64,000 nucleotides of DNA from Pseudomonadota bacterium (lineage in GTDB: Bacteria > Pseudomonadota > Gammaproteobacteria > Enterobacterales > Alteromonadaceae): assembly GCA_051750845.1 (NCBI GenBank), contig JBNJKC010000002.1, positions 31,910-95,909 of the forward strand, in the 5' to 3' direction. Below are positions 30,915 to 63,551 of the stretch, piece after piece (position 1 is the stretch's first letter; each line of letters starts with the position of its first letter). A program made the translations under genes and the position numbers. The notes beneath the pieces were generated by a model. It had not been told where the DNA came from. It saw nothing but the letters and a program-made list of their open reading frames with translations, and made no database searches.

Positions 30915-32981
30915 TTACTGAAGAAGTGAAATGTCTGCTATCTCCAGGAACAACTGACGCAATCTGAATAATAAGTTAAGTCGGTTCACACGAACTTTAT
31001 CGTCTTCCGCATTGACCATTACATGCTCAAAAAACGAATCGACAGGCTCTTTAAGCTCAGATAACTGCGTAAGGGCCTCGCTATAATCACTGTTAGCAAT
31101 AAGTGGCTTAATAGCGCTTTCAGTTTGTGTCACTAAACGATAAAGCGCTGTTTCGGAATCATCTTGTAAAACAGACTCATCAACTTTGCCGGATATTTCT
31201 TCTTTGGACTTTGCGAGAATATTCCCAACCCGCTTATTAGCAGCTGCCAAACTTGCTGCAGAGTCCAGAGATTTAAATGACTGAACAGCCTTAACGCGTT
31301 GGTCAAAGTCGGTTGGCTTTGACGGCGACCGTGCCAGTACTGACTGAATAACATCAACCGAAATACCTTGATCCTGATACCAAGGGCGGAAACGACCAAG
31401 CAAGAATTCAAATACGTCTGCAGCAACCGTTTTATTGGATAACTTATCACCAAAGCCTTCTACTGAGGCTGCCAGTAGCTCATTCAAATCTAGTGTGAGG
31501 TTGCGCTCGACCAGTGTACGCAATAAACCTAAAGCTGCGCGTCGAAGAGCAAAGGGGTCACGATCACCTTTGGGTACCTGACCAATACCGAATATACCGA
31601 CCAGAGTGTCCAATTTGTCAGCTAATGCTACGGCACTGGCTTCTTTGGTTTGAGGTAATTCATCACCTGAAAAGCGAGGCCAGTAATGTTGCTCAATTGC
31701 CTGTGCGACAGTTTCACTTTCACCGTCGTTAAGCGCATAGTGCTTGCCCATAACACCTTGAGTTTCAGGGAACTCTGAAACCATATCGGATACCAGGTCA
31801 GCTTTGCATAGTAAGCCGGCTCTTTCTGAAGCTTTTACGTCAGCGTTTAACTGGCTGGCAATTTTACCGGCCAACACTGAAATACGACGTGCTTTGTCAC
31901 CAATACTTCCAAGTTGCTTTTGGAAAAGTACAGAATCCAGTGCCGAAAGGCGAGATTCCAGTGTCTTTTTCTTATCGGACTCAAAGAAAAACTGTGCGTC
32001 TGCCAGACGAGGGCGGACGACCTTTTCATTACCTTTTACAATTTGTTTCGGGTCGCGACTTTCAATATTGGTAATGAAAATAAATTGAGACAATAAGTTA
32101 CCTTTGCCATCTTCAACCGGGAAGTAACGCTGGTCGTCTTTCATCGTGACAATGAGCGGTTCCTTTGGCACCGCCAGAAAACCCTGATCGAAACTTGCCG
32201 TTAAAGCAACGGGCCATTCCACCAGTGCCGCAACTTCTTCAACCAACTCGTTATCCTGAACAACCTGGCCGCCGATCTCGGAAGCAAGGCGTGATACTTC
32301 TGATTGAATGGCCTCAATACGCTCTTCGAAGTTAGCGATTACTTTCGCTTCACGAAGCTTAGAAAGGTAGCTGTCGACATGGTCAAGCTCAAAACCTTCA
32401 GGAGAATGGAAACGATGACCCTGAATAAAACGAGCGCTCTTAGTTTCCAGAATCTCAGCTGGGATTAGCTCGCTACCCAGCATTACCGTAAGTGTATGAA
32501 CAGGGCGAATGAACTGAGCTGTGCTGTCACCCCAGCGCATCGGTTTAGGAATAGGTAGTGTTTTAATGGCGGCTTCCAGCATACCCTGAACTAAGTCAGC
32601 GAGAGCCTGACCTTTTACTGTCGCCTTATGCAGCAGCCATTCACCTTTTTCTGTCTTTAAACGGTCAGCCTGTTCAACCGTAATACCATTAGAACGAGCC
32701 CAGCCTTCGGCGGCTTTCGTTGGGTTACCTGAATCATCAAAAGCGACATTAACGGCGGGGCCGCGTTTCTCTACTTCTTTATCCTGCTGCTCTGTCTCTA
32801 CTTGTTTTACCAGAACCGCGAGCCTGCGAGGGGTTGCGTAAGCTTCAATGCTATTGAAACTCAACTCTGCATTTTTTAAACCTGACTCAATACCCGACTT
32901 TAAGCTGTCGCGCAGTGATTTTAAGGCTTTTGGAGGCAGCTCTTCGGTACCTAGCTCAATTAATAAGTTTTCTTTTTGCAC
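30915..32981 (-). CDS. glyS: Glycine--tRNA ligase beta subunit
   Basis: [12 protein letters not shown]; MRWG; DPFALRRAA. Confidence 0.98.
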
Positions 32982-51934: not shown

Positions 51935-54700
51935 ATGGCCACATCTGTTCCCGAAAATCCGTTTATTCTCGTTGATGGTTCCTCTTATTTGTTTCGCGCC
52001 TTTCATGCGCCACCGCACTTAACCAATTCCAAAGGCGAGCCAACCGGCGCTGTTTATGGCGTTGTTAATATGCTGAGAAGCTTATTGAAACGCTATAAAC
52101 CCAGCCATATGGCGGTTGTTTTCGATGCGAAAGGTAAAACCTTCCGTAGTGACATCTACCAGGAGTACAAAGCAAACCGTCCGCCAATGCCCGATGACTT
52201 ACGCACACAAATTGAACCTCTGCATGAAATTGTGAAAGCAATGGGGCTGCCGCTGTTATGCATTGACGATGTTGAAGCGGATGATGTTATTGGCACTCTC
52301 GCCCGACAGGCTGGAGAAAAAGGGCGCTTTACGTTAATTAGTACCAGTGACAAAGACATGGCACAGCTGGTAAATGAACATGTCATGCTGATTAACACGA
52401 TGACTGACACTTTGCTGGATCCTGAAGGCGTTGAGAAAAAGTTCGGCGTGAAGCCGGAGCAGATCATTGATTATTTAGCGCTAATGGGCGACAGTTCCGA
52501 TAATATTCCGGGGCTGCCAAAAGTTGGCGAAAAGACTGCACAGGCAATGTTGCAACAAATTCCAAGCATTGATGCCATTTATGAAAATGTCGATGCGGTA
52601 AGCGAGCTGTCATTTCGCGGCGCGAAAACCATGCCGGCGAAACTGAACGAGTATAAAGATCAGTTGCTTATGTCCCGGGAGTTGGCAACCATTAAGCTTG
52701 ATGTGGCTATGGAATTGCAGCCGGACGAGCTGACCATACAAACTGCAGACAGCGAAAAGTTAGCTGAGTTATATAGCCGATGTGAATTCCGCCGTTGGCT
52801 TGGTGAGCTTATGGAAAGCGGGGCGGCAACTGACCAGGCTTTAGGGAAAACAGAAGGCGAAAAGCCAGTCAGCGACATTAACCAGGACGCTTACCGTGTT
52901 TTAATGACGGAAAAGGAAGTAAGTGACTATTTAGCCTCACTTAAGAAATGCGACTACTTTGCCTTTGATACCGAAACAACCAGTTTGAACTATATGCAGG
53001 CGGAACTTGTCGGTGTGTCATTGGCGATGGCACCCGGCGAAGCGGTCTACATTCCAGTTGGCCATGACTATATGGAAGCCCCGGAGCAAGTCGGGCGCGA
53101 CTGGTTGCTAGAGCAGTTGAAGCCTTTACTCGAAGCGGACAAACCGCAGAAGGTAGGGCAAAACCTTAAGTACGACGCACATATTTTGCGTCGTTATAAA
53201 ATTCGTTTAGGCGGTATTTTAAACGACACCATGCTGGCATCTTACGTATTTAACAGTGTCGGCTCCCGCCATGACATGGACACCTTGAGCCTGCATTACC
53301 TGAACCACAAGACGATCAGCTTTGAAGAGATTGCCGGTAAAGGCGCTAAGCAGCTGACCTTTAATCAAATCGATCTTGAACAGGCGGGTCCCTACGCGGC
53401 TGAAGATGCAGACATTACGTTCCGATTGCATGATGTCTTGTGGAATAAGGTCAAAGATGTTGGCAGCGAGCTACATAGTGTACTGACTGATATTGAAGTA
53501 CCGTTAGTTCCCGTACTGTGCGATATGGAACAATATGGTGTCCGTATTGATGCTAATTTACTTGGTAAACAGAGTCAGGAAATTACAGAGAAGCTCGACG
53601 CTTTAGAGAAAAAAGCTTTTGAGATTGCCGGTGAGGAGTTTAACCTAGGTTCAACCAAGCAGTTGCAACGCATTTTCTTCGAGAAGCTGGAGCTTCCGGT
53701 TGTTAAAAAGACTCCGAAAGGGGCACCATCAACGGCGGAGGAAGTTTTGCATGAGTTAGCGCATGACTATCCTTTACCGGATGTTATTTTACAGCACCGA
53801 AGTTTGTCGAAGTTAAAGTCAACTTATACCGATAAGCTGCCGAAGATGATCAACCCGGACACCGGCCGGGTGCACACCTCCTATCAGCAGGCGGTCACGG
53901 CAACCGGACGTTTGTCTTCCACTGATCCGAACTTACAGAATATTCCTATTCGTACCGCCGAAGGTCGCCGGGTGCGTCAGGCCTTTGTTCCGAAGCAAGG
54001 CTATAAAATAGTTGCTATCGATTACAGCCAGATTGAGCTGCGCATTATGGCGCACCTGTCGCAGGATGCGTCTTTATTAAAAGCTTTTGCTGACGGTCTG
54101 GATATTCACCGGGCAACGGCCGGGGAAGTGTTCGGTTGCAAAGCCGATGAGGTAACTGATGACCAACGCCGCCAGGCCAAGGCGGTCAACTTTGGCTTAA
54201 TTTACGGCATGTCTGCTTTTGGCCTTGCGCGTCAGTTGGGTATTGCCCGCCATGAAGCTCAACATTATATGGATAAGTACTTTGAGCGTTTCCCCGGTGT
54301 GCTGCGCTACATGGAAGATACTCGTAAACAGGCAAAAGAGCAGGGATACGTTAAAACCCTATTTGGGCGTCGCCTGCCTTTGCCGGATATAAAAGCCAGC
54401 AACGGAGCTCGCAGAAAAGGTGCGGAACGGGCTGCTATTAATGCGCCGATGCAGGGAACCGCGGCGGATATCATTAAAAAAGCGATGCTGAAAGTTGCTG
54501 ACTGGATTGATAGCAACCAGTGCCAGGATGACGTACGTATGTTAATGCAGGTTCACGATGAGTTGGTCTTTGAGATAAAAGAGGCCAGGTTGGATGATTA
54601 TATTGCACAATTAACAGATGTCATGGAAAAAGCCGCAAGCCTTGATGTGCCGCTTATTGCAGAGGCGGGTAAAGGCAATAATTGGGACGAAGCGCATTAA
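51935..54700 (+). CDS. polA: DNA polymerase I
   Basis: LVDGSSYLFRAFH 5'-3' exonuclease; FDTETT 3'-5' exonuclease; DYSQIELR; QVHDELVFE. Confidence 0.99.
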   Translation: MATSVPENPFILVDGSSYLFRAFHAPPHLTNSKGEPTGAVYGVVNMLRSLLKRYKPSHMAVVFDAKGKTFRSDIYQEYKANRPPMPDDLRTQIEPLHEIVKAMGLPLLCIDDVEADDVIGTLARQAGEKGRFTLISTSDKDMAQLVNEHVMLINTMTDTLLDPEGVEKKFGVKPEQIIDYLALMGDSSDNIPGLPKVGEKTAQAMLQQIPSIDAIYENVDAVSELSFRGAKTMPAKLNEYKDQLLMSRELATIKLDVAMELQPDELTIQTADSEKLAELYSRCEFRRWLGELMESGAATDQALGKTEGEKPVSDINQDAYRVLMTEKEVSDYLASLKKCDYFAFDTETTSLNYMQAELVGVSLAMAPGEAVYIPVGHDYMEAPEQVGRDWLLEQLKPLLEADKPQKVGQNLKYDAHILRRYKIRLGGILNDTMLASYVFNSVGSRHDMDTLSLHYLNHKTISFEEIAGKGAKQLTFNQIDLEQAGPYAAEDADITFRLHDVLWNKVKDVGSELHSVLTDIEVPLVPVLCDMEQYGVRIDANLLGKQSQEITEKLDALEKKAFEIAGEEFNLGSTKQLQRIFFEKLELPVVKKTPKGAPSTAEEVLHELAHDYPLPDVILQHRSLSKLKSTYTDKLPKMINPDTGRVHTSYQQAVTATGRLSSTDPNLQNIPIRTAEGRRVRQAFVPKQGYKIVAIDYSQIELRIMAHLSQDASLLKAFADGLDIHRATAGEVFGCKADEVTDDQRRQAKAVNFGLIYGMSAFGLARQLGIARHEAQHYMDKYFERFPGVLRYMEDTRKQAKEQGYVKTLFGRRLPLPDIKASNGARRKGAERAAINAPMQGTAADIIKKAMLKVADWIDSNQCQDDVRMLMQVHDELVFEIKEARLDDYIAQLTDVMEKAASLDVPLIAEAGKGNNWDEAH

Positions 54701-54715
54701 TTTTACGATTTTTGT

Positions 54716-54742
54716 GAACTTTATAAAAAGGGTCTAGTCACA
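54716..54742 (+). promoter_or_regulatory. Putative sigmaE-type promoter
   Basis: GAACTT (54716-54721), 16 nt, then TCACA (54738-54742). The established sigmaE consensus is GAACTT-N16-TCAAA. Confidence 0.55.
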
Positions 54743-54746
54743 ATAA

Positions 54747-54823
54747 GTGAGGGCATTAATCCTCCCTCACAAAATTGTTCTCCCTGGATTACTTTTGGCC
54801 CGGCTTTTTAGTCGGGCTTTTTT
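54747..54823 (+). ncRNA. Candidate ~77-nt sRNA at the Spot 42/ErsA position downstream of polA
   Basis: Upstream promoter motif; 5' hairpin GTGAGGG/CCCTCAC; pyrimidine-rich single-stranded middle; terminator GCCCGGCT/AGTCGGGC plus 6 U. Confidence 0.6.
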
Positions 54824-55739
54824 ATTGCTCTTTCTGCGGAATGCCGGCCAGGCCGGGACGACCCTTACGGTTGGCAAACCATACGCCAACAAGAATTGCC
54901 AACATACCAATACCTTGTTGTAACCAGAATGCTTCACCGTCAAGTACGCCCAGCAAAACGGCAACCACCGGAATGAGATAAGTGACTGAACTGGTAAACA
55001 CCGTATTGGTTAATTGCACAACGTGGTTAAAAATAACCAAAGCGCCGGCCGTTCCGGCAATACCCAAAGCTAAAACAGAGAACAGCGATAACATAGCGTC
55101 GGGTTGTTGAACCTGTGCTATAAATTCTGTGCCAGCAAACAAATAGACAGTAGCAGGAACCGCAGCCATGAGTAGCGATATACCTGTGATGGTTAACGGT
55201 GATAAGTCACTGATTTTATGTTTAATCAGGTTCAGGTTAAGGCCGTAACAAACCGTTGCTGCCATGACTAACAAAGCATAAAGGTTGAAGTCCCAACTGC
55301 CATTGGCGGAAGCGGTAACTAAAAGCAGAGTACCAAAGAGGCCTATACCGACACCGATAACCTGTGCTACTCGCGCCTTTTGATGGAAGAATAAAGAACC
55401 GATAACCAGAGTGGCTATGGGGGTTAAGGCATTCAGAACCCCAGTGACACCACTGGCCAATTGAGTTTGTGCTATTGCGAACATAAAAGCCGGAATTAGG
55501 CTGCCAACCAGACCAACACTGGCCAATTTCAGCCAATGCTTGCGGGTGATTTTGTTCAGGCGGCGAGCTATAAAGGGGGCTAGCACGATACCGGCCGAAC
55601 TAATGCGTAGAGCCCCAACTTCCATTGGCCCAAAAGCGAGTAGACCCTTTTTAATTAATAAAAAAGAGCTACCCCAAATTAATGCGAGTAACCCTAATAA
55701 TAACCAGGCGCTAAGCGGTGGTGTGTTATTCGTTGTCAT
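54822..55739 (-). CDS. DMT/EamA family transporter
   Basis: Ten hydrophobic segments; [10 protein letters not shown]; two EamA repeats; TYLIPVVAV. Confidence 0.92.
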
Positions 55740-56346
55740 ACTCTTTGCTATACCACTGGTTGAGTTTCTCTTCGACTTGCTCGACGCCGAAGCGTTTTAA
55801 TGAGGAAAATGCTTCGACCTGAACGTCACCATTAAAGGCAATTGCAGCTTGTCTTGCTTTTAACACCGTTGACTTACGAGCGCCCTGTTTAAGTTTGTCG
55901 GCTTTGGTGAGCAATACCAGTACCGGCAACTCACAATCAACAGCCCAGTAAATGAGTTCCTGATCGGTTTCGCGGAAAGGGTGACGGATGTCCATTAGTA
56001 CGACAATACCCTTGAGGCTGTCTCTTTGCTGAAGGTATTCGCTTAAAGAACGCTGCCACTTCTCTTTTACGGCCAGTGGCACCTTGGCAAAGCCATACCC
56101 TGGTAAGTCAATAAGGCGTTGACCGCTGTCGAGTTCGAACACATTAATTAGCTGGGTTCGTCCTGGAGTTTTACTGGTACGAGCCAGTGATTTTTGCCGC
56201 GTTAGTGTATTCAGAGCGCTGGATTTACCGGCATTAGAACGGCCGGCGAACGCAATTTCGATGCCTGTGTCCGGAGGCAGTTTGCTGATATCCGGTGCAC
56301 TGGTCACAAATTTTGCCGATGCGTAATCTAATTGCTGATCTGCCAC
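55726..56346 (-). CDS. engB: Ribosome biogenesis GTPase YihA/EngB
   Basis: [27 protein letters not shown]. Start placed at GTG 56346 (uncertain; the ORF track starts at 56424). Confidence 0.96.
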
Positions 56347-56541
56347 TATTAAGGTCACTTTTATTGATAAAACGGAACGTCTACGTGCATTATGAAGTAT
56401 CCGGACAGTATCTCCAATGATCATTTAGCAATTGATTCGGTTTTAATCGTTTAATCCACACAAGTTTTGTGTAAAATAGCAACCTGCTTAAGGTGATTTA
56501 TTGGGGCGCGTGGCGCCATCCAGAACAGAAGAGAAGCAAAC

Positions 56542-57168
56542 ATGAAAAAATTCGCAATCTTTTTGGGACTTTTCTTCGGTACCGCCGGTATCGCAGTAGC
56601 ACAAAGCGGCGATGCTGAAGCCGGAAAAGAGAAATCGCAAGTTTGTGCGGCTTGCCATGGACCCAATGGTGAATCTCCGACCGATATGTATCCGCATTTG
56701 GCCGGCCAGCACGAAAAATATCTGCTTAAACAGCTGAAGGATTATAAGCTGGCTCAGGAAAGCGGCGGTGAAGAAGGTCGTAACAATCCAATTATGATGG
56801 GTCAGGTTGCGTCATTATCTGAACAAGATATGGCTGACTTAGCGGCTTTCTTCGCATCACAGGAGGAGCCGAAAGGCGAAACGGCTGAAGATATTATTGC
56901 ACAAGGGCGTGACCTTTACCGTCGTGGCAACCCTGAAACGAATATGCCGTCTTGTGCAGGCTGCCATGGTCCTCGGGGAAATGGTATGGGGTTAGCGGCA
57001 TTTCCGGATATCTCCGGTCAGCACGCGGCTTACACTAAGTCTCAACTAGAAATGTTCCGTAGCGGCGAACGTGCTAACGATCCAAACGGAATGATGCAGG
57101 GCGTGACAGAAAAAATGACAGACGACGAAATCGAGTTGCTGTCTAAGTTCTTGAGTGGCTTGTACTAA
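56542..57168 (+). CDS. Diheme cytochrome c4
   Basis: Signal peptide, two CXXCH motifs (CAACH, CAGCH), YPHLAGQH and M ligands; divergent from engB. Confidence 0.93.
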   Translation: MKKFAIFLGLFFGTAGIAVAQSGDAEAGKEKSQVCAACHGPNGESPTDMYPHLAGQHEKYLLKQLKDYKLAQESGGEEGRNNPIMMGQVASLSEQDMADLAAFFASQEEPKGETAEDIIAQGRDLYRRGNPETNMPSCAGCHGPRGNGMGLAAFPDISGQHAAYTKSQLEMFRSGERANDPNGMMQGVTEKMTDDEIELLSKFLSGLY

Positions 57169-57187
57169 ACAGAGCTTAATCAAATAG

Positions 57188-57211
57188 AAAGCGGCTTAGG
57201 CCGCTTTTTTT
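57188..57211 (+). terminator. Cytochrome c4 terminator
   Basis: AAAGCGGC-TTAG-GCCGCTTT plus a T-run. Confidence 0.85.
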
Positions 57212-57311
57212 GTTCTTAATAAGAATAATTTAGAACCTTTCAGAGCTTATTCAGGAGTTTTAGTTCCCCATCGCTCATAGTTCATGCACCGTTTAGTAAA
57301 AGGTGCGAGAT

Positions 57312-60300
57312 ATGAGCGTCATAAAGTCCAGTCATAAAAATCCGTTTGCCACTGTAGTGGTATTTCTCATAGTTATTATTCTCGGTACGACCGCATTAAT
57401 TAATTTACCTATCCAATTGATGCCTAACATCGAGAAACCTGTCATTACTGTCATGAACTTTTGGCGGTCAGCTGCGCCAGAGGAAATGGAATCAGAAATT
57501 GTCGAACCGCAGGAAGAAATCATAAAGAACATTGTTGGGGTTGAATCGATAGAGACCTCCGTGCGCAATGGCTTTTCATTCACTACGATAGAGTTCAATT
57601 TGCAGCAAGATATGCAGCAAGGCTTTATTAATGTGATAAACGCACTGAATCAAGTGCAGGGAATGCCGCTCGAGGCCAGCGAACCAATGACGATTCTTGG
57701 GGAGTACCAAGCTGGCACAGCAACAATGATGATTCGTAAGTTGGGCGAAAACGAGACTAAAGACTTCACTGAGTACCAAGAGCTCATAAAGCACAAAGTC
57801 GCACCAAGGCTTCGCAATATTCCGGGAGTCACCAACGTTAGCTTGGCAAGCTACTTGACCAATCAACTGCAAGTTACTTTTGACCCGTATAAGTTAGCGG
57901 CTTTGGGCATTACTGTGCCTGAGCTAATGGGAAGAGTCACCGAGTCAAAAGACTTCTCTGGCGGTTTTGCTGATGTCGGACGTCGAGAGTATTCGGTAAG
58001 ATACCAAGGGCAGTTTTCTCCCGAAGAGCTTGAGCATTTGGTTGTATCACACAATGATGGGCGGCCAGTGTATCTTGGGGAAGTTGCGGACGTTGTTTTA
58101 GGGTTTGAAAAGCAATACAACTTTATCTATCGAAACTCTCAGCCTGGCTTTTACATCTCTCTGGACGCTTCTAAGCAAGCCAACACAATAGAAATATTTG
58201 AACACTTAAACAAAGTGATTGCTGAGCTTAACGAGCAAGAGTTGAACCCTCGTGGCTTAGATATGGTTTTGAGCTTCGATTCGTCTTCAGTGATCAAGCG
58301 CGCTATAAACTTAGTACAAAACAACTTGAGTATCGGCATTGCCCTCGCGTTGCTAATGCTTTATTGGATGATACGTGGCGCTCGTTCCACGATGCTAATT
58401 AGCATCACAATTCCCGTGTCATTGAGTGCAGCATTGTTGGGTTTGAGCTTCCTGGACCGCTCGTTGAATATTATTTCTCTGGCAGGTTTGGCGTTTTCCA
58501 CTGGCCTGGTATTGGATGCAGCGATTGTTGTTCAAGAAAATATTGTTCGACTTCGACAGCAAGGTCTTGAGTTGAAAAAGGCTGTTATTCAGGGGGCACA
58601 AGAAGTTTCTCGCGCATTGTTTGCTGCGACAGTAACGACCGTTGCTATTTTCTTGCCGGTTATTTTTATGGGAGGCATTGCAGGCCAGTTATTTTATGAC
58701 CTTGCTGTGACAATGAGTATTGCGGTCGTGGCCTCAACGCTAACAGCACTTTTATTGCTACCTGTGGTCGCTGCTTTTGTTCTCAAAGAATCTGAAAAAC
58801 AGACGAAACCCCTCGCTGTTTGGACTAAGTTATCTTCTGTCTATCAACGGTACTGCCGTACACCAAAGCAGATAATGGCATGGGCTGTTGGGTTAGGCCT
58901 TAGTTCTTTACTTTGTATTCTGTTGCTAATGCCAAAAACAGACTTTCTTCCTGAAGCTAAGTTCGAAGGTATTATCGCAGTACTTCAAACGCCTCCGTCA
59001 ACAAACTACCGAATTTTAGAACAGGAGTTAGCTAGAGAGCTTATTGAGCGGTTGGAGCCGTACCGCAACGGTGAGAAGTCTCCTCAAATTAAAGATTTTA
59101 ACCTAACCATGAGCTCTGGAGGTAAAGCGATTTTCATCTACCCCAGGGATCCGTCTAAGTCTGCGGAGCTATTGAGCGCTATTCGGCAGGATGTATTAAC
59201 CGGTCTACCTGACACCAAGGGCTTTGCTTTTAACATGTCGTTGATTAACTCAGTAAAAGTAGGGTCAGGTCGTAGCGTCTATATGGACTTCACCGGGCAA
59301 CTGGATGACACCACTCAGCTCGTTATAGAACGCACTATGAAACTAATAGCTGACCGCATTCCGGAATCATATGTGCGACGAGTGCCTAATGCACAGGCAG
59401 TCCAGGCAGAGCTACAAATCACACCAAATAACTATGCCATAGCAAACTCCGGGCTCACTCGTAATCAAGTTGGCCAAGTCATACGCAGTATGACGGACGG
59501 GCAGTTTGTTGGAGAGCATTACGACGGCATTTTAAGACGTGACGTCATTGTCAAGACCCTTCCATGGAGCACTCCGGAAGAGCTAGCGGCAATGCCAATT
59601 TATACGCCGAACAGTGGCATTCAAACTATTGATCAATTGACTGAGCAAAATAGAACTGTCTCGGCTACCGAGTTGCGTCGAATTGATGGTCAACGAGCGC
59701 TTACCATAGGTGTGACTCCTCCAGACGATTTTTCGCTCGAGGACACCATCAAAATTCTTCGTGAGCTGAAATTAGAAGCTGAGCAGCAATTGTCGAACCA
59801 GACCTTTATAAGCCTAAGCGGGGGGGCTGACGATTTAAAAGAGACTGTTAATACCATGGTCACGAATTTTGCATTTGCGATTTTAATATTGCTGTTAATT
59901 ATGGCGGCAATATTCCGCTCGGTTATCGACAGCCTGTTGGTGTTGCTAACGACTCCTATCGCTATCGCTGGGGGGACATTAGGCCTTTGGGTGTTGAATT
60001 TATTTAAGTTTCAGCCGCTTGACCTACTGACAATGATTGGGTTTGTCATTCTACTTGGTTTGGTGGTTAATAACGCCATTCTAATGATTGAGAAAACTCG
60101 CCAAGCTCAGCGTGAAGGCCTAACCATCGGCGATGCTATCTCTGAAGCAATAGCACAGCGAGTAAGACCCATTTATATGAGTTCATTGACGTCTGTTGTC
60201 GGGATGTTGCCCTTAGCCCTTATTCCTGGTGCTGGTAGTGAATTATACCAAGGGTTAGCGGTGGTTATTTTGAGTGGTATGGCGATAAGTACTTTATTTA

Positions 60301-60422
60301 CGGTATTTGCAATCAGCGCATTGCTCTACATAGCAGAGCGTCTATTCCCTAAACATTTCCTTTTGAATACTAGTGAGCTAGGCGGTTTACCTAAAACGAA
60401 CCCACTGAGAGGTGACTTATGA
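57312..60422 (+). CDS. RND efflux transporter permease subunit (AcrB/AcrD/AcrF family)
   Basis: About 1036 aa with two large periplasmic loops; GLVLDAAIVVQENI (TM4), GLVVNNAILMIE, RVRPIYMSSLT. Start placed at ATG 57312 (GTG 57303 possible). Confidence 0.93.
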   Translation: MSVIKSSHKNPFATVVVFLIVIILGTTALINLPIQLMPNIEKPVITVMNFWRSAAPEEMESEIVEPQEEIIKNIVGVESIETSVRNGFSFTTIEFNLQQDMQQGFINVINALNQVQGMPLEASEPMTILGEYQAGTATMMIRKLGENETKDFTEYQELIKHKVAPRLRNIPGVTNVSLASYLTNQLQVTFDPYKLAALGITVPELMGRVTESKDFSGGFADVGRREYSVRYQGQFSPEELEHLVVSHNDGRPVYLGEVADVVLGFEKQYNFIYRNSQPGFYISLDASKQANTIEIFEHLNKVIAELNEQELNPRGLDMVLSFDSSSVIKRAINLVQNNLSIGIALALLMLYWMIRGARSTMLISITIPVSLSAALLGLSFLDRSLNIISLAGLAFSTGLVLDAAIVVQENIVRLRQQGLELKKAVIQGAQEVSRALFAATVTTVAIFLPVIFMGGIAGQLFYDLAVTMSIAVVASTLTALLLLPVVAAFVLKESEKQTKPLAVWTKLSSVYQRYCRTPKQIMAWAVGLGLSSLLCILLLMPKTDFLPEAKFEGIIAVLQTPPSTNYRILEQELARELIERLEPYRNGEKSPQIKDFNLTMSSGGKAIFIYPRDPSKSAELLSAIRQDVLTGLPDTKGFAFNMSLINSVKVGSGRSVYMDFTGQLDDTTQLVIERTMKLIADRIPESYVRRVPNAQAVQAELQITPNNYAIANSGLTRNQVGQVIRSMTDGQFVGEHYDGILRRDVIVKTLPWSTPEELAAMPIYTPNSGIQTIDQLTEQNRTVSATELRRIDGQRALTIGVTPPDDFSLEDTIKILRELKLEAEQQLSNQTFISLSGGADDLKETVNTMVTNFAFAILILLLIMAAIFRSVIDSLLVLLTTPIAIAGGTLGLWVLNLFKFQPLDLLTMIGFVILLGLVVNNAILMIEKTRQAQREGLTIGDAISEAIAQRVRPIYMSSLTSVVGMLPLALIPGAGSELYQGLAVVILSGMAISTLFTVFAISALLYIAERLFPKHFLLNTSELGGLPKTNPLRGDL

Positions 60423-61492
60423 TTATTACTAAACGTATTACATTCACGGCATTATTAACGGCCTTGTTATTTAGCGTTATTGCGGAAGCGGATAACGCGC
60501 CGGTGGTATCTGTCGCCGCGGTAGAAGAAACTCGGTTGAGTCCGGCTGTTCGTGTTACTGGTCATGTGCAGTCACGATATCAAACCGAACTGTCTAGCGG
60601 TGTTGCAGGAGTTGTAGACTGGACAGCCGAAGAGGGCAAACATGTAAAACAAGGAGACGCTGTTGCAAAACTGGATACTACGCAATTGAAGCTCACCGAG
60701 CAGCGTCTTGCTGTGCAGGTAAAGCGACAAAAGGTAGAGCTGAATCGGCTAATGCAGGAGTATAATCGGTTAACCCGTTTAAAGAGCAGCAACTTAGTAT
60801 CTGAGCAAGTACTTGAAGGAGCAAAAGTGGATAAAGAGTTAGCTGAAGCCGACTTGCAATTATTGATGCTAGAACAACAGCAGGCGCAAGATAGCTTAAA
60901 CAAAGCTCTGGTAAAGGCTCCGTTTTCTGGCATTATCGCTAAGCGCTATGTGCGGGCAGGGCAAGCCGTAGGAAGCACCTCCGAGTTGATAAAGTTAGTC
61001 AGCCTCAAAGAGCTAGAAGTAAAGTTACACGGACCACTAAGCTATAGTCGTTATCTCGATTCTAAATACGCTGTTGAAGTTCACTTTAGTGATGGTCGAA
61101 CGCTATTACCGGTGCGAGCTGTTGTTGCTGTGAGTGACGAGCGTTCGCAGACATTCACAGCTTATCTTGACATTCCTAAACAGCAACTGAGCCGCTTTGA
61201 CATTGGACAAGTTGTCAGTGTCAGTGTTCCTAGTGCTAAGGAAGAAAACTATGTTTCCGTGCCGCGTGACGCTCTTGTTATCAAGTCATCAGGATACTTC
61301 GTGTATAAACTTGATAGCGAGAACAAAGCACATAAAATTTCGGTAGAGGTGACACAAGGCGTGGGTGAGCGCGTGGGAGTCACAGGAAACTTAGATATAG
61401 GAGAGAAAGTTATTGTCCGCGGTGCTGAAACACTTCGCGACGGGACGGTAGTTAAAATACTGACAGCTCATGAGTTTCCTTTGGCGAGCTAA
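60419..61492 (+). CDS. RND efflux periplasmic adaptor (membrane fusion protein)
   Basis: Signal peptide, lipoyl halves around a coiled coil, VKAPFSGII, VPRDAL, GEKVIVRG; ATGA-coupled to the RND gene. Confidence 0.93.
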   Translation: MIITKRITFTALLTALLFSVIAEADNAPVVSVAAVEETRLSPAVRVTGHVQSRYQTELSSGVAGVVDWTAEEGKHVKQGDAVAKLDTTQLKLTEQRLAVQVKRQKVELNRLMQEYNRLTRLKSSNLVSEQVLEGAKVDKELAEADLQLLMLEQQQAQDSLNKALVKAPFSGIIAKRYVRAGQAVGSTSELIKLVSLKELEVKLHGPLSYSRYLDSKYAVEVHFSDGRTLLPVRAVVAVSDERSQTFTAYLDIPKQQLSRFDIGQVVSVSVPSAKEENYVSVPRDALVIKSSGYFVYKLDSENKAHKISVEVTQGVGERVGVTGNLDIGEKVIVRGAETLRDGTVVKILTAHEFPLAS

Positions 61493-62949
61493 TTTTGAAT
61501 ATAATTTTTTACACGGCTCTTTAGTGAGTCAAACTTAGAGTCATTATTCAACGGTTGGTAGTGAGGGTCTATTGGAATGAATATCGCCGCAGGTTGTTTT
61601 GTTTCAATAGCCCTATTAAGCCAATGAATGGCTTGATCAAAATCGCCGGCAACTACTGCGTAACGAGCCCATGACAGAGGAGGAAGGTAATGCCCTAAAT
61701 TGGTATCCACCCGGCGGTCCAATAATTCCTGATAGACTGGACTAAGACCATGGTTATTGAATATGCTCTCATAGTGAGCAATTTGCTTTTCTGGAAAGTG
61801 TTGCTCTTTCATAAGTTGCTTTAGCGTTCGGAAAGCTTCTTCATCATTTCCTGTTAAGATAGCGATTCGGTTAAGGACGCGCTGAGATAGCCTTGACTCA
61901 GCTTCTGAATTTTCAATTCTTTGAACTTCCGCTGCGGCAAGATCATACTGTTCCTTAAATAGGTAAACGTAGGACATATTAAGGAACTTATAGTAATCTG
62001 GATTTTTGCGACGCAACTTGCCGAGAAACTTTTCAGCGTTTTCAAAGTCGCCAATAGAAATAAGAAACTCCGAGTATCCCTGATAAACAAGAGGATCCTC
62101 TGGACTGTATTTTAATGCGTTAAGGTAAGCGGCTTTCGCTGACTCAAACTCCCAATTGGCAATGTGTTTCAGCCACGCCTGTAGCAACCAGGCGTGGCCA
62201 TTTTCAGGCTCCTTTTCGAGTACGAAGTCCACAATTGACTGAACCTCACCTTTATAGATACCTATATCCCTGTAGCTGTTAAGCATGCTCAAATGGATTT
62301 TCGCTTGAGCTACAGTAAGGTAGGCGGGAAGGTAGCCTGGAGTTTGCTGAATAATGTCTCGGGCTATTGATATTGCTTTACGTTGGTGTTCTGGTTCCAT
62401 GACTTCGAGTGAGCTATTCGCTTTATTATGCTGCTCTATTACTGCTTTGGGATAAGCTGTCTCACTGTTGGCTTCAGGTACCCTTTTTAAAAGGTAAAAT
62501 GAACTGGCTCCAACGATAACTGCAACTATGGCTATTAACGCACCATAAATGGCTGGCTTCTTAGGTTTATGTTCTACCGGGGGGTTGGTCGGGAGCTGAT
62601 TGAGCGGTTGAAGCTTTTCCTGTGTTGCCTGCTTGACCTCAACCCTTGGTAGCCACTGATAGCCGTGACCGGAAAGCGTTTTTATAAAAGTAGGGTTATG
62701 GCGACTGTCACCGAGCACTTTTCGTAGTTTACTAATAGCTACTGAGAGACTATCCTCGTTAACGACCCGATCGGGCCACACCGCTTCAATGACTTCCAGT
62801 TTGCTGAGCTTTTCATTGTCGCTTTGGCAAAAGATGAGTAGAAGATCACTAACCCGCTGCTCCAAAATTTCGGAACGAGAGTTTAAAATCAGTAAGTTAG
62901 TCTCTGGTCGGAAGACGTAGTCTGAAAAGTGAAATTCGGTATTTTGCAT
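61489..62949 (-). CDS. ToxR/CadC-like membrane-anchored transcriptional regulator (winged helix, TM, TPR-like domain)
   Basis: VWPDRVVNEDSLSVAISKLRKVLGD...FIKTLSGHGYQ OmpR-type wHTH; one TM (AIYGALIAIVAVIVGASSFYLL); TPR-like helical C-terminus. Confidence 0.88.
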   Translation of the reverse strand: MQNTEFHFSDYVFRPETNLLILNSRSEILEQRVSDLLLIFCQSDNEKLSKLEVIEAVWPDRVVNEDSLSVAISKLRKVLGDSRHNPTFIKTLSGHGYQWLPRVEVKQATQEKLQPLNQLPTNPPVEHKPKKPAIYGALIAIVAVIVGASSFYLLKRVPEANSETAYPKAVIEQHNKANSSLEVMEPEHQRKAISIARDIIQQTPGYLPAYLTVAQAKIHLSMLNSYRDIGIYKGEVQSIVDFVLEKEPENGHAWLLQAWLKHIANWEFESAKAAYLNALKYSPEDPLVYQGYSEFLISIGDFENAEKFLGKLRRKNPDYYKFLNMSYVYLFKEQYDLAAAEVQRIENSEAESRLSQRVLNRIAILTGNDEEAFRTLKQLMKEQHFPEKQIAHYESIFNNHGLSPVYQELLDRRVDTNLGHYLPPLSWARYAVVAGDFDQAIHWLNRAIETKQPAAIFIPIDPHYQPLNNDSKFDSLKSRVKNYIQN

Positions 62950-63056
62950 TTGGTCTTTTATTTCTTACTATAGCTAAAGTTGTGTCCGAGTGGCAAATGA
63001 ATTCACTTTGTTAACGAAAAGTAATAAGAAAGTTGTTTTTTAGATCAATAAAATCA

Positions 63057-63084
63057 TTGAATTAATATTTGGTTCAAGTAGTCT
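63057..63084 (+). promoter_or_regulatory. Putative sigma70 promoter of the long ncRNA candidate
   Basis: TTGAAT (63057-63062), 16 nt, then TAGTCT (63079-63084). Confidence 0.4.
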
Positions 63085-63090
63085 TAACAA

Positions 63091-63427
63091 CGCTCCGGGG
63101 CCGTACGGACAGAAAAAAACAAAAAAAAGATGTTAAAAGCCCTTGAGGAAATAATAAAAAGACTGTAAAAATACAGCTGACTCGACACAAAAAAATAACA
63201 AGAGGTCGGGAGATTATCGAAAAGTCGGATTCCATCTTATTTCTCGATAATCCAGGGAGTAAAGCCAATAGGCTAGAGGTTGCTCCATTTTATAATAACA
63301 ATAATAAAAGAAAGGTTACGGAAAACCGCAATAACAAGTCGGAAGCAGTGACAACCATTCTCATAGTTGCAGTGCGCTGCCGATAATATGAGAGAAGCAG
63401 GCGATGTGTAAAAGCATCGCCTTTTTT
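63091..63427 (+). ncRNA. Candidate ~335-nt protein/sRNA-sponging RNA (CsrB/C-like GGA motifs plus CrcZ-like AANAANAA tracts)
   Basis: No credible ORF. Hairpins alternate with A-rich linkers; 7 GGA motifs; 5 AANAANAA tracts; terminator AGGCGATG/CATCGCCT plus T-run (63399-63427). Lies upstream of yihI, where enterobacterial csrC sits. Confidence 0.65.
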
Positions 63428-63551
63428 CTTATCTGAGCCAAGCCTTTCTTATAGCGTACAGCCTTTTCCTTTTTGTATTTTACCCTCCCACTGACGTCAT
63501 CCCCGTTAATGAGTTACAATAGGTCATATTAGTTTTTATTTAGGAGCGACC

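Follow-up and report, generated by a model that had tools for sequence, protein, structure and literature searches.

The 64,000-nt stretch of DNA analysed here (the window; positions 31,910 to 95,909 of the forward strand of contig JBNJKC010000002.1, assembly GCA_051750845.1, from a bacterium of the Alteromonadaceae) carries two candidate RNA genes on its + strand. The first is a small RNA (sRNA) of about 75 nt downstream of polA (54749..54824), and the second is a long non-coding RNA of about 340 nt before yihI (63092..63430), which lies in the csrC slot and is a candidate sponge RNA of the Csr family. Segments of the two RNAs are complementary, and this complementarity was found to be kept in all 47 sRNA-bearing genomes, which belong to three genera. 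The pairing is also rebuilt in other registers, is absent from genomes that do not have the sRNA and is absent in outgroups, a pattern that is hard to explain without contact between the two molecules. On these comparative grounds we lean towards the reading that the two RNAs base-pair functionally in the cell, as a co-evolving interaction between an sRNA and a Csr-type RNA.

Predicted pairing of the two RNAs across genera

In the genus of this genome (g1), 29 genomes were compared, 27 of which are represented in the sRNA alignment, and all 29 keep 9-14 bp at the same site. A covariance model of the sRNA (R1, seed plus terminator) located the sRNA in two more small-genome genera, g52 and g35. 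The nine g52 genomes, from nine species, all keep the helix at the same site, where UCCCUGGAUU(G) is paired with AAUCCAGGGA. The preliminary description of this DNA had made its case depend on conservation of the pair, and our alignments show a same-site helix of 9-14 bp in 38 of the 38 genomes of g1 and g52. The seed block of the sRNA, TTGTTCTCCCTGGAT (15 nt, 54775..54789, + strand), shows no difference among the 27 aligned genomes of the genus, and the target forms a conserved island in the otherwise variable 5' half of the long RNA. Substitutions in the core of the target were all observed to be changes from A to G opposite a U of the seed (G014, G012/G018, G001, G019 and G021). G019 has lost the GGA motif but still pairs over 11 bp, and G021 has changed on both sides, with GGAUGUU in the seed and AAUGUCC in the target. 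Across the 19 distinct seed-plus-target combinations, 87 % of the cells were found to be paired, as against 30-53 % when the partner was slid. The target is open in g52, where its opening costs 0.8-4.4 kcal/mol.

A different arrangement was observed in g35, where the sRNA reads ...CUCUCCCAAGAUGUUUUCCCUGGACAUC... and the homologue of the target has decayed to CAUCAGGGAAC or AAAGGGAAU, leaving 6-8 bp. Here a different helix of 12-21 bp joins the same two RNAs in all nine sRNA-bearing genomes. For example, UCCCAAGAUGUUUU pairs with AAAACAUUUUGGGA in G268, G061, G248 and G417 (14 bp with one G.U), while the helix comprises 12 bp in G395 and 15 bp with two G.U pairs in G373. The longest one was found in G333, where GCUCUCUCCUAAGAUGUUUUC and GGAAACAUUUUGGGAGAGGGC form 21 bp. 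In G193, GCUCUCUCCUAAAG is paired with UUUUAGGAGAGGGC, and in G304 GCUCUCUCCUAAA is paired with UUUGGGAGAGGGC; taken together, these two genomes have GCUCUCUCCUAAA(G) with (U)UUUAGGAGAGGGC and UUUGGGAGAGGGC. The longer helix in G333, G193 and G304 required changes in both RNAs. We also noticed that one position of the g35 helix runs from C:G through U.G to U:A across genomes, a series that comes from few lineages and was analysed by hand.

The shifted sites in g35 are accessible, with opening costs of 1.6-6 kcal/mol, and yihI follows the terminator of the long RNA in all these genomes. None of 1000 shuffles reaches the helix of G268, and none of 1000 reaches the energy of that in G333. The g35 helices were analysed by hand, with statistics of helix length and energy that were chosen after the data had been seen, and the counts ignore phylogeny. 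When every linker was combined with every long RNA in a 19 x 19 matrix, combinations of the same type averaged 10.8-12.5 bp whereas those of different types averaged 8.0-9.5 bp, which is the background of shuffled sequences.

Four g35 genomes (G286, G360, G319 and G384) have no sRNA gene after polA and show a plain terminator between polA and the transporter gene. The covariance model gave only weak hits in G319 and G384, and hit an unrelated locus in G286 and G360. The long RNAs of these four genomes keep the GCC-AGGA-GGC hairpin and plain GGA motifs, and they were found to be without both complements, reaching 7-9 bp against g35 linkers in four of four cases. Two outgroup genomes, G033 and G036, served as negative controls. 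They combine a different sigmaE-type sRNA with a GGA-rich RNA in the CsrC slot, and only background complementarity was observed between the two.

A separate observation concerns G286 and G360, which carry, at another place in the genome, an unrelated sRNA-like gene (L158 and L159, about 300-440 of the oriented loci) with a promoter of the TATAAT type, a terminator and a look-alike seed, GUUCCCUGGAUUUAUUCCUCC. A complement of GUUCCCUGGAUUUAUUCCUCC was not found in the long RNA of these genomes.

The twelve-base match, coincidence and direction

In the genome of the window, the sRNA segment CTCCCTGGATTA (54780..54791, + strand) and the target TAATCCAGGGAG (63248..63259, + strand) in the long RNA are exact reverse complements over 12 nt, as had been claimed. 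The target overlaps a CsrA-type CAGGGA motif, and the claimed overlap of the site with a GGA motif was thereby borne out. The 9-bp stem that had been described between GATTATCGA (63212..63220) and TCGATAATC (63244..63252) is present in the sequence, in the consensus fold and in the single-sequence fold; it closes a hairpin (63212..63252, + strand) whose 3' arm (63244-63252) covers the UAAUC of the target. A-rich tracts of the ARN type were likewise seen on both sides of the site. In contrast, the remainder of the target, CAGGGAG, is not free as had been stated. GGAGUAA (63256-63262) is paired with UUGCUCC (63280..63286, + strand) in both folds, and only CAG is left between the two helices in the consensus fold of 27 distinct sequences and in the single-sequence fold. 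The toehold geometry proposed earlier was thus upheld for UAAUC, which is held in the 9-bp stem, but not for GGAG, which is predicted to pair downstream.

The strength of the match was assessed in several ways. The chance estimate given in the preliminary description (about 3e-4) is too optimistic, as values from shuffling are 5-20 times weaker. Dinucleotide-preserving shuffles of the long RNA gave a probability of 0.0015 for a Watson-Crick helix of at least 12 bp and of 0.007 for a helix of at least 12 bp with no more than one G.U pair, both for one RNA pair and before correction for the multiple comparisons made in that description. The target 12-mer, 11-mer and 10-mer have no second copy anywhere in the 2.74-Mb genome (46.8 % GC). 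Uniqueness in the genome, another point on which the proposal had been made to depend, therefore holds in one sense, since the site is the sole perfect match of at least 10 nt to the seed, but not in energy, where about 20 sites are equal or better. Net binding, which includes the internal structure of the RNAs, amounts to -9.1 kcal/mol as against -4.8 +/- 2.2 kcal/mol for random genomic 340-mers. By itself, the match in this single genome is notable and not compelling, and the single-genome argument is weaker than was first stated.

These considerations bear on the possibility that two independently constrained motifs coincide without functional contact. In such a case the sRNA would carry an anti-Shine-Dalgarno or anti-GGA loop, the long RNA would carry a high-affinity CsrA site, AUCCAGGGA, and the AU-rich flanks of both would add chance pairs. 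We consider this, the main alternative, possible but rather unlikely, and a number of results weigh in its favour and against a functional contact. On this view, a C-rich loop would always find a GGA motif to pair with in a CsrA sponge, and each motif may have its own reason for being conserved. AUCCAGGGA resembles the CsrA consensus from systematic evolution of ligands by exponential enrichment (RUACARGGAUGU), and the overlapped CAGGGA, next to the GCC-AGGA-GGC hairpin of g52 and g35, makes a typical dual CsrA site. On the side of the sRNA, GUUC and GGAU of the seed pair internally around the UCCCU loop, which could account for the conservation of GGAU.

The pairing statistics contribute further points of this kind. 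Covariation, which had been named as a check, is not significant at the 12-mer site, where the observed score is equalled by 129 of 500 within-column shuffles and the pairs of the core are invariant or vary on one side only; this site is conserved and we claim no covariation for it. The probability based on duplex energy is about 0.05 in this genome and in most others, and the shifted helix of G373 is not significant in the shuffle test. Five of 160 random 340-mers bind as well as the long RNA (P of about 0.03 for net binding). The duplex energy of the site is matched or exceeded at about 20 genomic sites on both strands, among them the translation-initiation regions of a TonB-dependent receptor gene, secF and rpoE, and the site ranks about 20th. 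It is also mostly buried, as the mean probability of being unpaired is 0.23 over the 12-mer and 0.46 over the whole long RNA, and opening the target costs 11.7 kcal/mol in this genome. U-rich linkers and A-rich RNAs easily yield chance helices of 10-12 bp, and AU-rich helices of 11-12 bp were indeed seen against unrelated RNAs. Lastly, the pattern reflects only a handful of independent changes in evolution, about two or three registers and a single loss.

Coincidence nevertheless leaves five observations unexplained. A second, non-homologous helix of 14-21 bp was found between the same two RNAs in g35, and it shows the change from C:G through U.G to U:A as well as an extension that involves both RNAs. 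Pairing is kept in G019, where the GGA motif is gone. The flanks beyond GGA are lost exactly in the four genomes that have no sRNA, and the two outgroup pairs stay at the background level.

If the two RNAs do pair functionally, as we favour, the contact would start between UCCCU of the sRNA and GGGA of the long RNA and would spread into the flanks to give 12 bp in this genome. The sRNA and CsrA would be mutually exclusive at this site because the paired segment contains the CsrA-type CAGGGA motif. Hfq may assist the pairing, as suggested by the ARN tracts beside the site and by the U-tail of the sRNA. The likeliest direction would be that the long RNA buffers (sponges) the sRNA, given that its abundance far exceeds that of the neighbouring transcripts.

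The opposite arrangement, with the sRNA regulating and the Csr-family RNA as its target and not its sponge, appears unlikely to us. Under envelope stress, the sRNA would then open the helices of the long RNA and mask the CsrA site or recruit RNase E, so that the stability of the Csr RNA or its capacity for CsrA is lowered and the level of free CsrA is altered. The same comparative evidence applies to either direction, the pairing site overlaps a GGA motif, and, with ARN tracts next to that site, the long RNA is arranged like an Hfq 'target' RNA. Furthermore, for a contact between the sRNA CpxQ and CsrB in Escherichia coli, coordination of both regulons was proposed (preprint 10.1101/2025.09.11.675593). 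However, few transcripts are as abundant as the long RNA, of which a low-abundance sRNA could touch only a small fraction, and only one of about seven GGA motifs would be masked.

Anatomy and setting of the two genes

The sRNA gene lies 15 nt past the stop codon of polA and converges with the gene for an EamA-type transporter and with engB/yihA. Alignment and folding show a 5' hairpin, an invariant block that is single-stranded or forms a pentaloop, and an intrinsic terminator. The 5' hairpin (GTGAGGG ... CCCTCAC, 54747..54770, + strand) varies in length and sequence between clades while its arms stay complementary, as in GTGAAGGC/GCCTTCA and GAAAGGCGC.../...CCTTTC. In the fold of the sRNA (-24.9 kcal/mol, z = -3.2), a weak GUUC/GGAU stem can present UCCCU in a pentaloop, and the same hairpin was observed with an 8-bp stem in g35. 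The terminator consists of a 9-bp stem followed by a T-run (54797..54824, + strand).

A promoter motif of the sigmaE type, GAACTT-N16-TCACA, lies just upstream of the sRNA (54716..54742, + strand). In the form GAACTT-N16-TCnnA, it is kept in 26 of the 27 aligned genomes of the genus, with deviations in the -10 region of G001 and G021. The motif also precedes the sRNA of g52, where some genomes have TGAACTA, and this type of promoter is conserved across the three genera. The same motif was also found as GAACTTTTTACATGCGGTCCTGTCACA (GAACTTT...GTCACA) 66-92 nt upstream of the start codon of rpoE (L161, 1409-1435), as would be expected of a sigmaE promoter under autoregulation. This copy is most likely the autoregulated sigmaE promoter of rpoE and may be used as a local consensus for the sigmaE regulon. 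Five matches to the sigmaE-type motif were found in the window, compared with 1.9 expected. We infer that the small RNA is probably a sigmaE-type, terminator-ended, trans-acting sRNA.

No Rfam family matched the sRNA at threshold, and no homology to Spot 42, ErsA, MicA, RybB, VrrA or MicV was detected with Rfam models in permissive scans. Its best sub-threshold matches (anti-hemB, 28.7 bits against a threshold of 49.5; mmgR, 26.5 against 41) are unrelated sRNAs with C-rich motifs.

The missing Rfam match agrees with an explanation in which there is no pair at all and the element downstream of polA is a bidirectional terminator or a 3' untranslated region (UTR) shared by polA and the convergent transporter gene. 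Contigs from RNA runs over 54732-55481 (two metatranscriptome sets) are low in depth and continue into the neighbouring gene, which speaks for it and against our favoured reading. We judge it very improbable, as it does not account for a promoter motif of the rpoE type that is conserved across three genera, nor for an invariant 15-nt block between a covarying hairpin and a terminator. In run X12, a gap in coverage from 54682 to 54748 is followed by a contig that begins at 54749, the predicted +1 of the sRNA. In addition, the element is missing from four genomes in which a plain terminator lies between polA and the transporter gene. Transcription of both RNAs, on which the earlier proposal also depended, was therefore seen clearly for the long RNA, which is abundant, while discrete expression of the small RNA is only hinted at. 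The evidence supports both RNAs as credible genes.

Sites for the sRNA were predicted on the translation-initiation regions of genes for a TonB-dependent receptor, SecF, a secreted peptidase and RpoE. In rpoE, the start region UUAAGGGAGAACAGGcucggAUG (contig C1:337801-337840; L161, 1470-1509) contains a 10-nt perfect complement, AGGGAGAACA, to the 5' half of the seed, UGUUCUCCCU. This complement is found in most of g1, where it suggests that the sigmaE-type sRNA might exert direct negative feedback on rpoE. The Shine-Dalgarno region of rpoE was not upheld as a conserved target of the sRNA, as the site decays in g52 and g35.

The long RNA has a sigma70-like promoter, TTGAAT-N16-TAGTCT (63057..63084, + strand), that is conserved across the genus, and RNA contigs place its 5' end at 63092, 8 nt past the -10 hexamer. 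Contigs from eight RNA runs cover it 40 to more than 400 times as deeply as the flanking genes, with depths of up to 25000 as against tens for the neighbours. Pieces of RNA without mismatches extend from 63108 or 63121 to 63391 or 63394, and pieces end at 63391-63400, just before the terminator. These data are assembled contigs, in which depths and contig ends are approximate, and the transcript is taken to run from 63092 to about 63400 or beyond. No open reading frame of at least 60 aa is present on the strand of the long RNA, and one 64-aa frame on the minus strand overlaps it (63074-63268).

The fold of the long RNA gave z = -4.9. In the alignment of the genus, hardly any change is seen in its 3' half, where GGA hairpins occur, while the 5' half is variable except for the island (A)AUCCAGGGAGUAAA. 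In clade C of the genus, the 5' arm of the hairpin at the target becomes CUGGAUUUC, which mimics the seed, and the target is unchanged. Downstream lies a conserved GGUU-ACGGAA-AACC hairpin with GGA in its loop (63314..63327, + strand), which in G021 is replaced by the compensated variant GAUCA-AGGAAGA-UGAUC. The intrinsic terminator, AGGCGATG...CATCGCC-U (63399..63430, + strand; stem 63399-63422 plus U-run), has a stem that is common to RNAs of the CsrC slot elsewhere. Seven GGA motifs occur in the 339 nt of the long RNA (G000) and 3-8 across the clade, some of them in hairpin loops, together with 11 AAnAAnAA words. We also noticed that the hairpin following the target (63264-63273) reads GCC-AAUA-GGC in this genus and GGCC-AGGA-GGCC in g52 and g35. 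This genus seems to have lost GGA from what looks like a classic CsrA hairpin and to have kept the adjoining CAGGGAG, which was read as single-stranded.

The gene order, with polA, an sRNA slot and yihA/engB followed by a further sRNA slot and yihI, identifies the position of the long RNA as the csrC slot. GGA-rich RNAs resembling CsrB and CsrC, with many A(N)GGA motifs and a GGCGAT...ATCGCC-U terminator, were found upstream of yihI in seven other genera (G028, G033, G035, G036, G039, G053 and G054). In g52 and g35, yihI begins 80-150 nt past the terminator of the long RNA. At gathering score, none of the Rfam models of CsrB, CsrC, RsmY or RsmZ matches the long RNA, the best being CsrC with 8.1 bits against a threshold of 61, over the terminator only. 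The whole window likewise has nothing at Rfam gathering thresholds and permissive scans gave only unrelated sub-threshold matches. A UvrY/GacA box (TGTAAG-N6-CTTACA) with up to three mismatches was not found in 62900-63100. A second canonical CsrB elsewhere in the genome was also considered and rejected, since the highest-ranking GGA-dense segments all fall in coding sequence and no paralogue of the long RNA was found.

The genome has genes for CsrA, Hfq and RpoE, and CsrA is 86 % identical to the E. coli protein. Because it shares its slot and its terminator with recognisable CsrB/C-like RNAs, the long RNA is a candidate for the Csr-family sponge RNA of this clade, atypical in being GGA-poor and ARN-rich, and it would be expected to bind CsrA. 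Such an RNA would have been missed by current covariance models in three genera, and a clade-specific model could be built from the alignments.

The two genes lie 8.5 kb apart here and about 2.6-2.9 kb apart in relatives of the genus, because of a 5.8-kb insertion (57212..63007) with genes for an RND permease, an RND adaptor and a CadC-like winged-helix/TPR regulator. The insertion is found only in this genome. In three RNA runs, the empty site of close relatives is seen as a joint from 57211 to 63008 with 42 other letters between, and the insertion is not part of the pairing mechanism.

Other genera, both within the family and within the order, carry a bona fide Spot 42 in the slot after polA. 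In G031, G033 and G036 (L085, L083 and L082), a further small gene, which has a GAACTT-N16-TC promoter and a separate terminator, comes after Spot 42; we know of no published description of such a tandem of spf and a sigmaE-type sRNA. Six genera have another conserved small gene in this slot (L084 in G030, L087 in G029, L091 in G035, L096 in G034, L098 in G028 and L099 in G032). Here TTTACA-N17-TATAAT is followed by ...TTGTTCCTAAGCGAACGCTTGTTGT... and, where the printed stretch reaches that far, by a terminator, and a motif of the AAATTACA type lies upstream. This gene may be a diverged equivalent of Spot 42. The analysis shows that genes for regulatory RNAs recur in the neighbourhood from polA to yihI, which is a conserved hot spot for them. 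Elsewhere, the covariance model of the sRNA found clusters of 5-12 close copies in genera g2 and g5, some about 230-250 nt apart (G188:C1:3612943-3638598; G315:C12:455231-482774; G282:C1:1274848-1285855; G426:C1:3402228-3403871; G382:C33:205-1005), which could represent either small elements with terminators arranged in tandem or sRNA genes present in several copies.

Related systems and biological meaning

The closest precedent comes from E. coli, where the envelope-stress sRNA CpxQ makes a single specific contact with CsrB by TRIC-seq (preprint 10.1101/2025.09.11.675593). CsrB otherwise has almost no RNA partners, and coordination of the two regulons by this contact was put forward there (10.1101/2025.09.11.675593). 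The statement in the preliminary description that no such system is recognised must be qualified, as this contact was reported in E. coli; it has no sequence relation to the present pair. Both systems combine an envelope-stress sRNA, here a putative one, with a protein-sponge RNA of the Csr family to which it pairs or, here, is predicted to pair. They differ in that CpxQ belongs to the Cpx response and is derived from a 3' UTR while the sRNA described here is a free-standing gene with a sigmaE-type promoter, and in that the partner is CsrB in one case and an RNA of the csrC slot in the other. The former contact was seen by TRIC-seq, whereas the present one is proposed from comparative evidence, which adds turnover of the register and loss of both sides together across genera.

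In E. coli, csrC occupies the position of the long RNA before yihI. The present locus resembles the E. coli one with csrC (RF00084) and spf in gene order and in having an abundant, non-coding RNA with GGA motifs and a terminator. Unlike csrC, the long RNA has no covariance-model match, contains many AAnAAnAA tracts and has no UvrY/GacA box, and the polA slot holds a sigmaE-type sRNA in place of Spot 42. GGA motifs number 9 in CsrC and 18 in CsrB according to the published counts, so that the 3-8 observed here are low for CsrB/CsrC and typical of RsmY/RsmZ. A pairing of Spot 42 with CsrC in Salmonella was dropped as a precedent, as the paper reports parallel pathways and not pairing. The long RNA is similar to RsmY and RsmZ of Pseudomonas in its few GGA motifs, some in hairpin loops, and to CrcZ and other ligands of the distal face of Hfq in its A-rich AAnAAnAA tracts, on which weak sub-threshold matches to CrcZ fall. 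It differs from all three in that no model matches at threshold, in its position and in its promoter, with neither a sigma54 promoter nor a GacA box.

On the side of the sRNA, ErsA of Pseudomonas aeruginosa is described as being controlled by the envelope-stress factor sigma22/AlgU, and its gene reportedly sits beside polA, in the setting known for Spot 42. The small RNA described here is its analogue in being an sRNA under an envelope-stress sigma factor, as its promoter suggests, in a slot adjacent to polA, yet no similarity in sequence or by covariance model was detected. We know of no link between ErsA and RsmY or RsmZ.

Classical sponges of sRNAs include SroC for GcvB, PspH for Spot 42, QrrX for the Qrr sRNAs and the tRNA-spacer 3'ETS for RyhB and RybB. 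As in these cases, one RNA here is complementary over an extended segment to the seed of a trans-acting sRNA, which it could titrate. The classical sponges are fragments derived from mRNAs, tRNA precursors or prophages, or dedicated sRNAs, whereas the candidate here is itself a protein-sponge RNA. A single molecule would thus titrate CsrA and an sRNA at overlapping sites. To our knowledge, Csr/Rsm sponge RNAs have hitherto been regarded as pure protein decoys, and the contact of CpxQ with CsrB is one recent interactome finding that points to pairing with envelope-stress sRNAs as well.

A fuller proposal, which we offer tentatively and regard as rather unlikely in its entirety, is that the abundant and sole Csr-family RNA of a small-genome marine clade titrates both CsrA and a sigmaE-driven sRNA at mutually exclusive, co-evolved sites. 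Envelope stress and the availability of CsrA would then re-set each other, and the interface would have been rebuilt in at least three registers and dropped with the loss of the sRNA. The clade, with its three pairing registers and its lineages that have no sRNA, offers a natural experiment in which rules of co-evolution at the interface between an sRNA and its sponge can be tested. If the pairing described here is real, crosstalk between sRNAs and Csr RNAs would be a recurring and maintained design that ties envelope stress to global control by CsrA, and not an oddity of E. coli.

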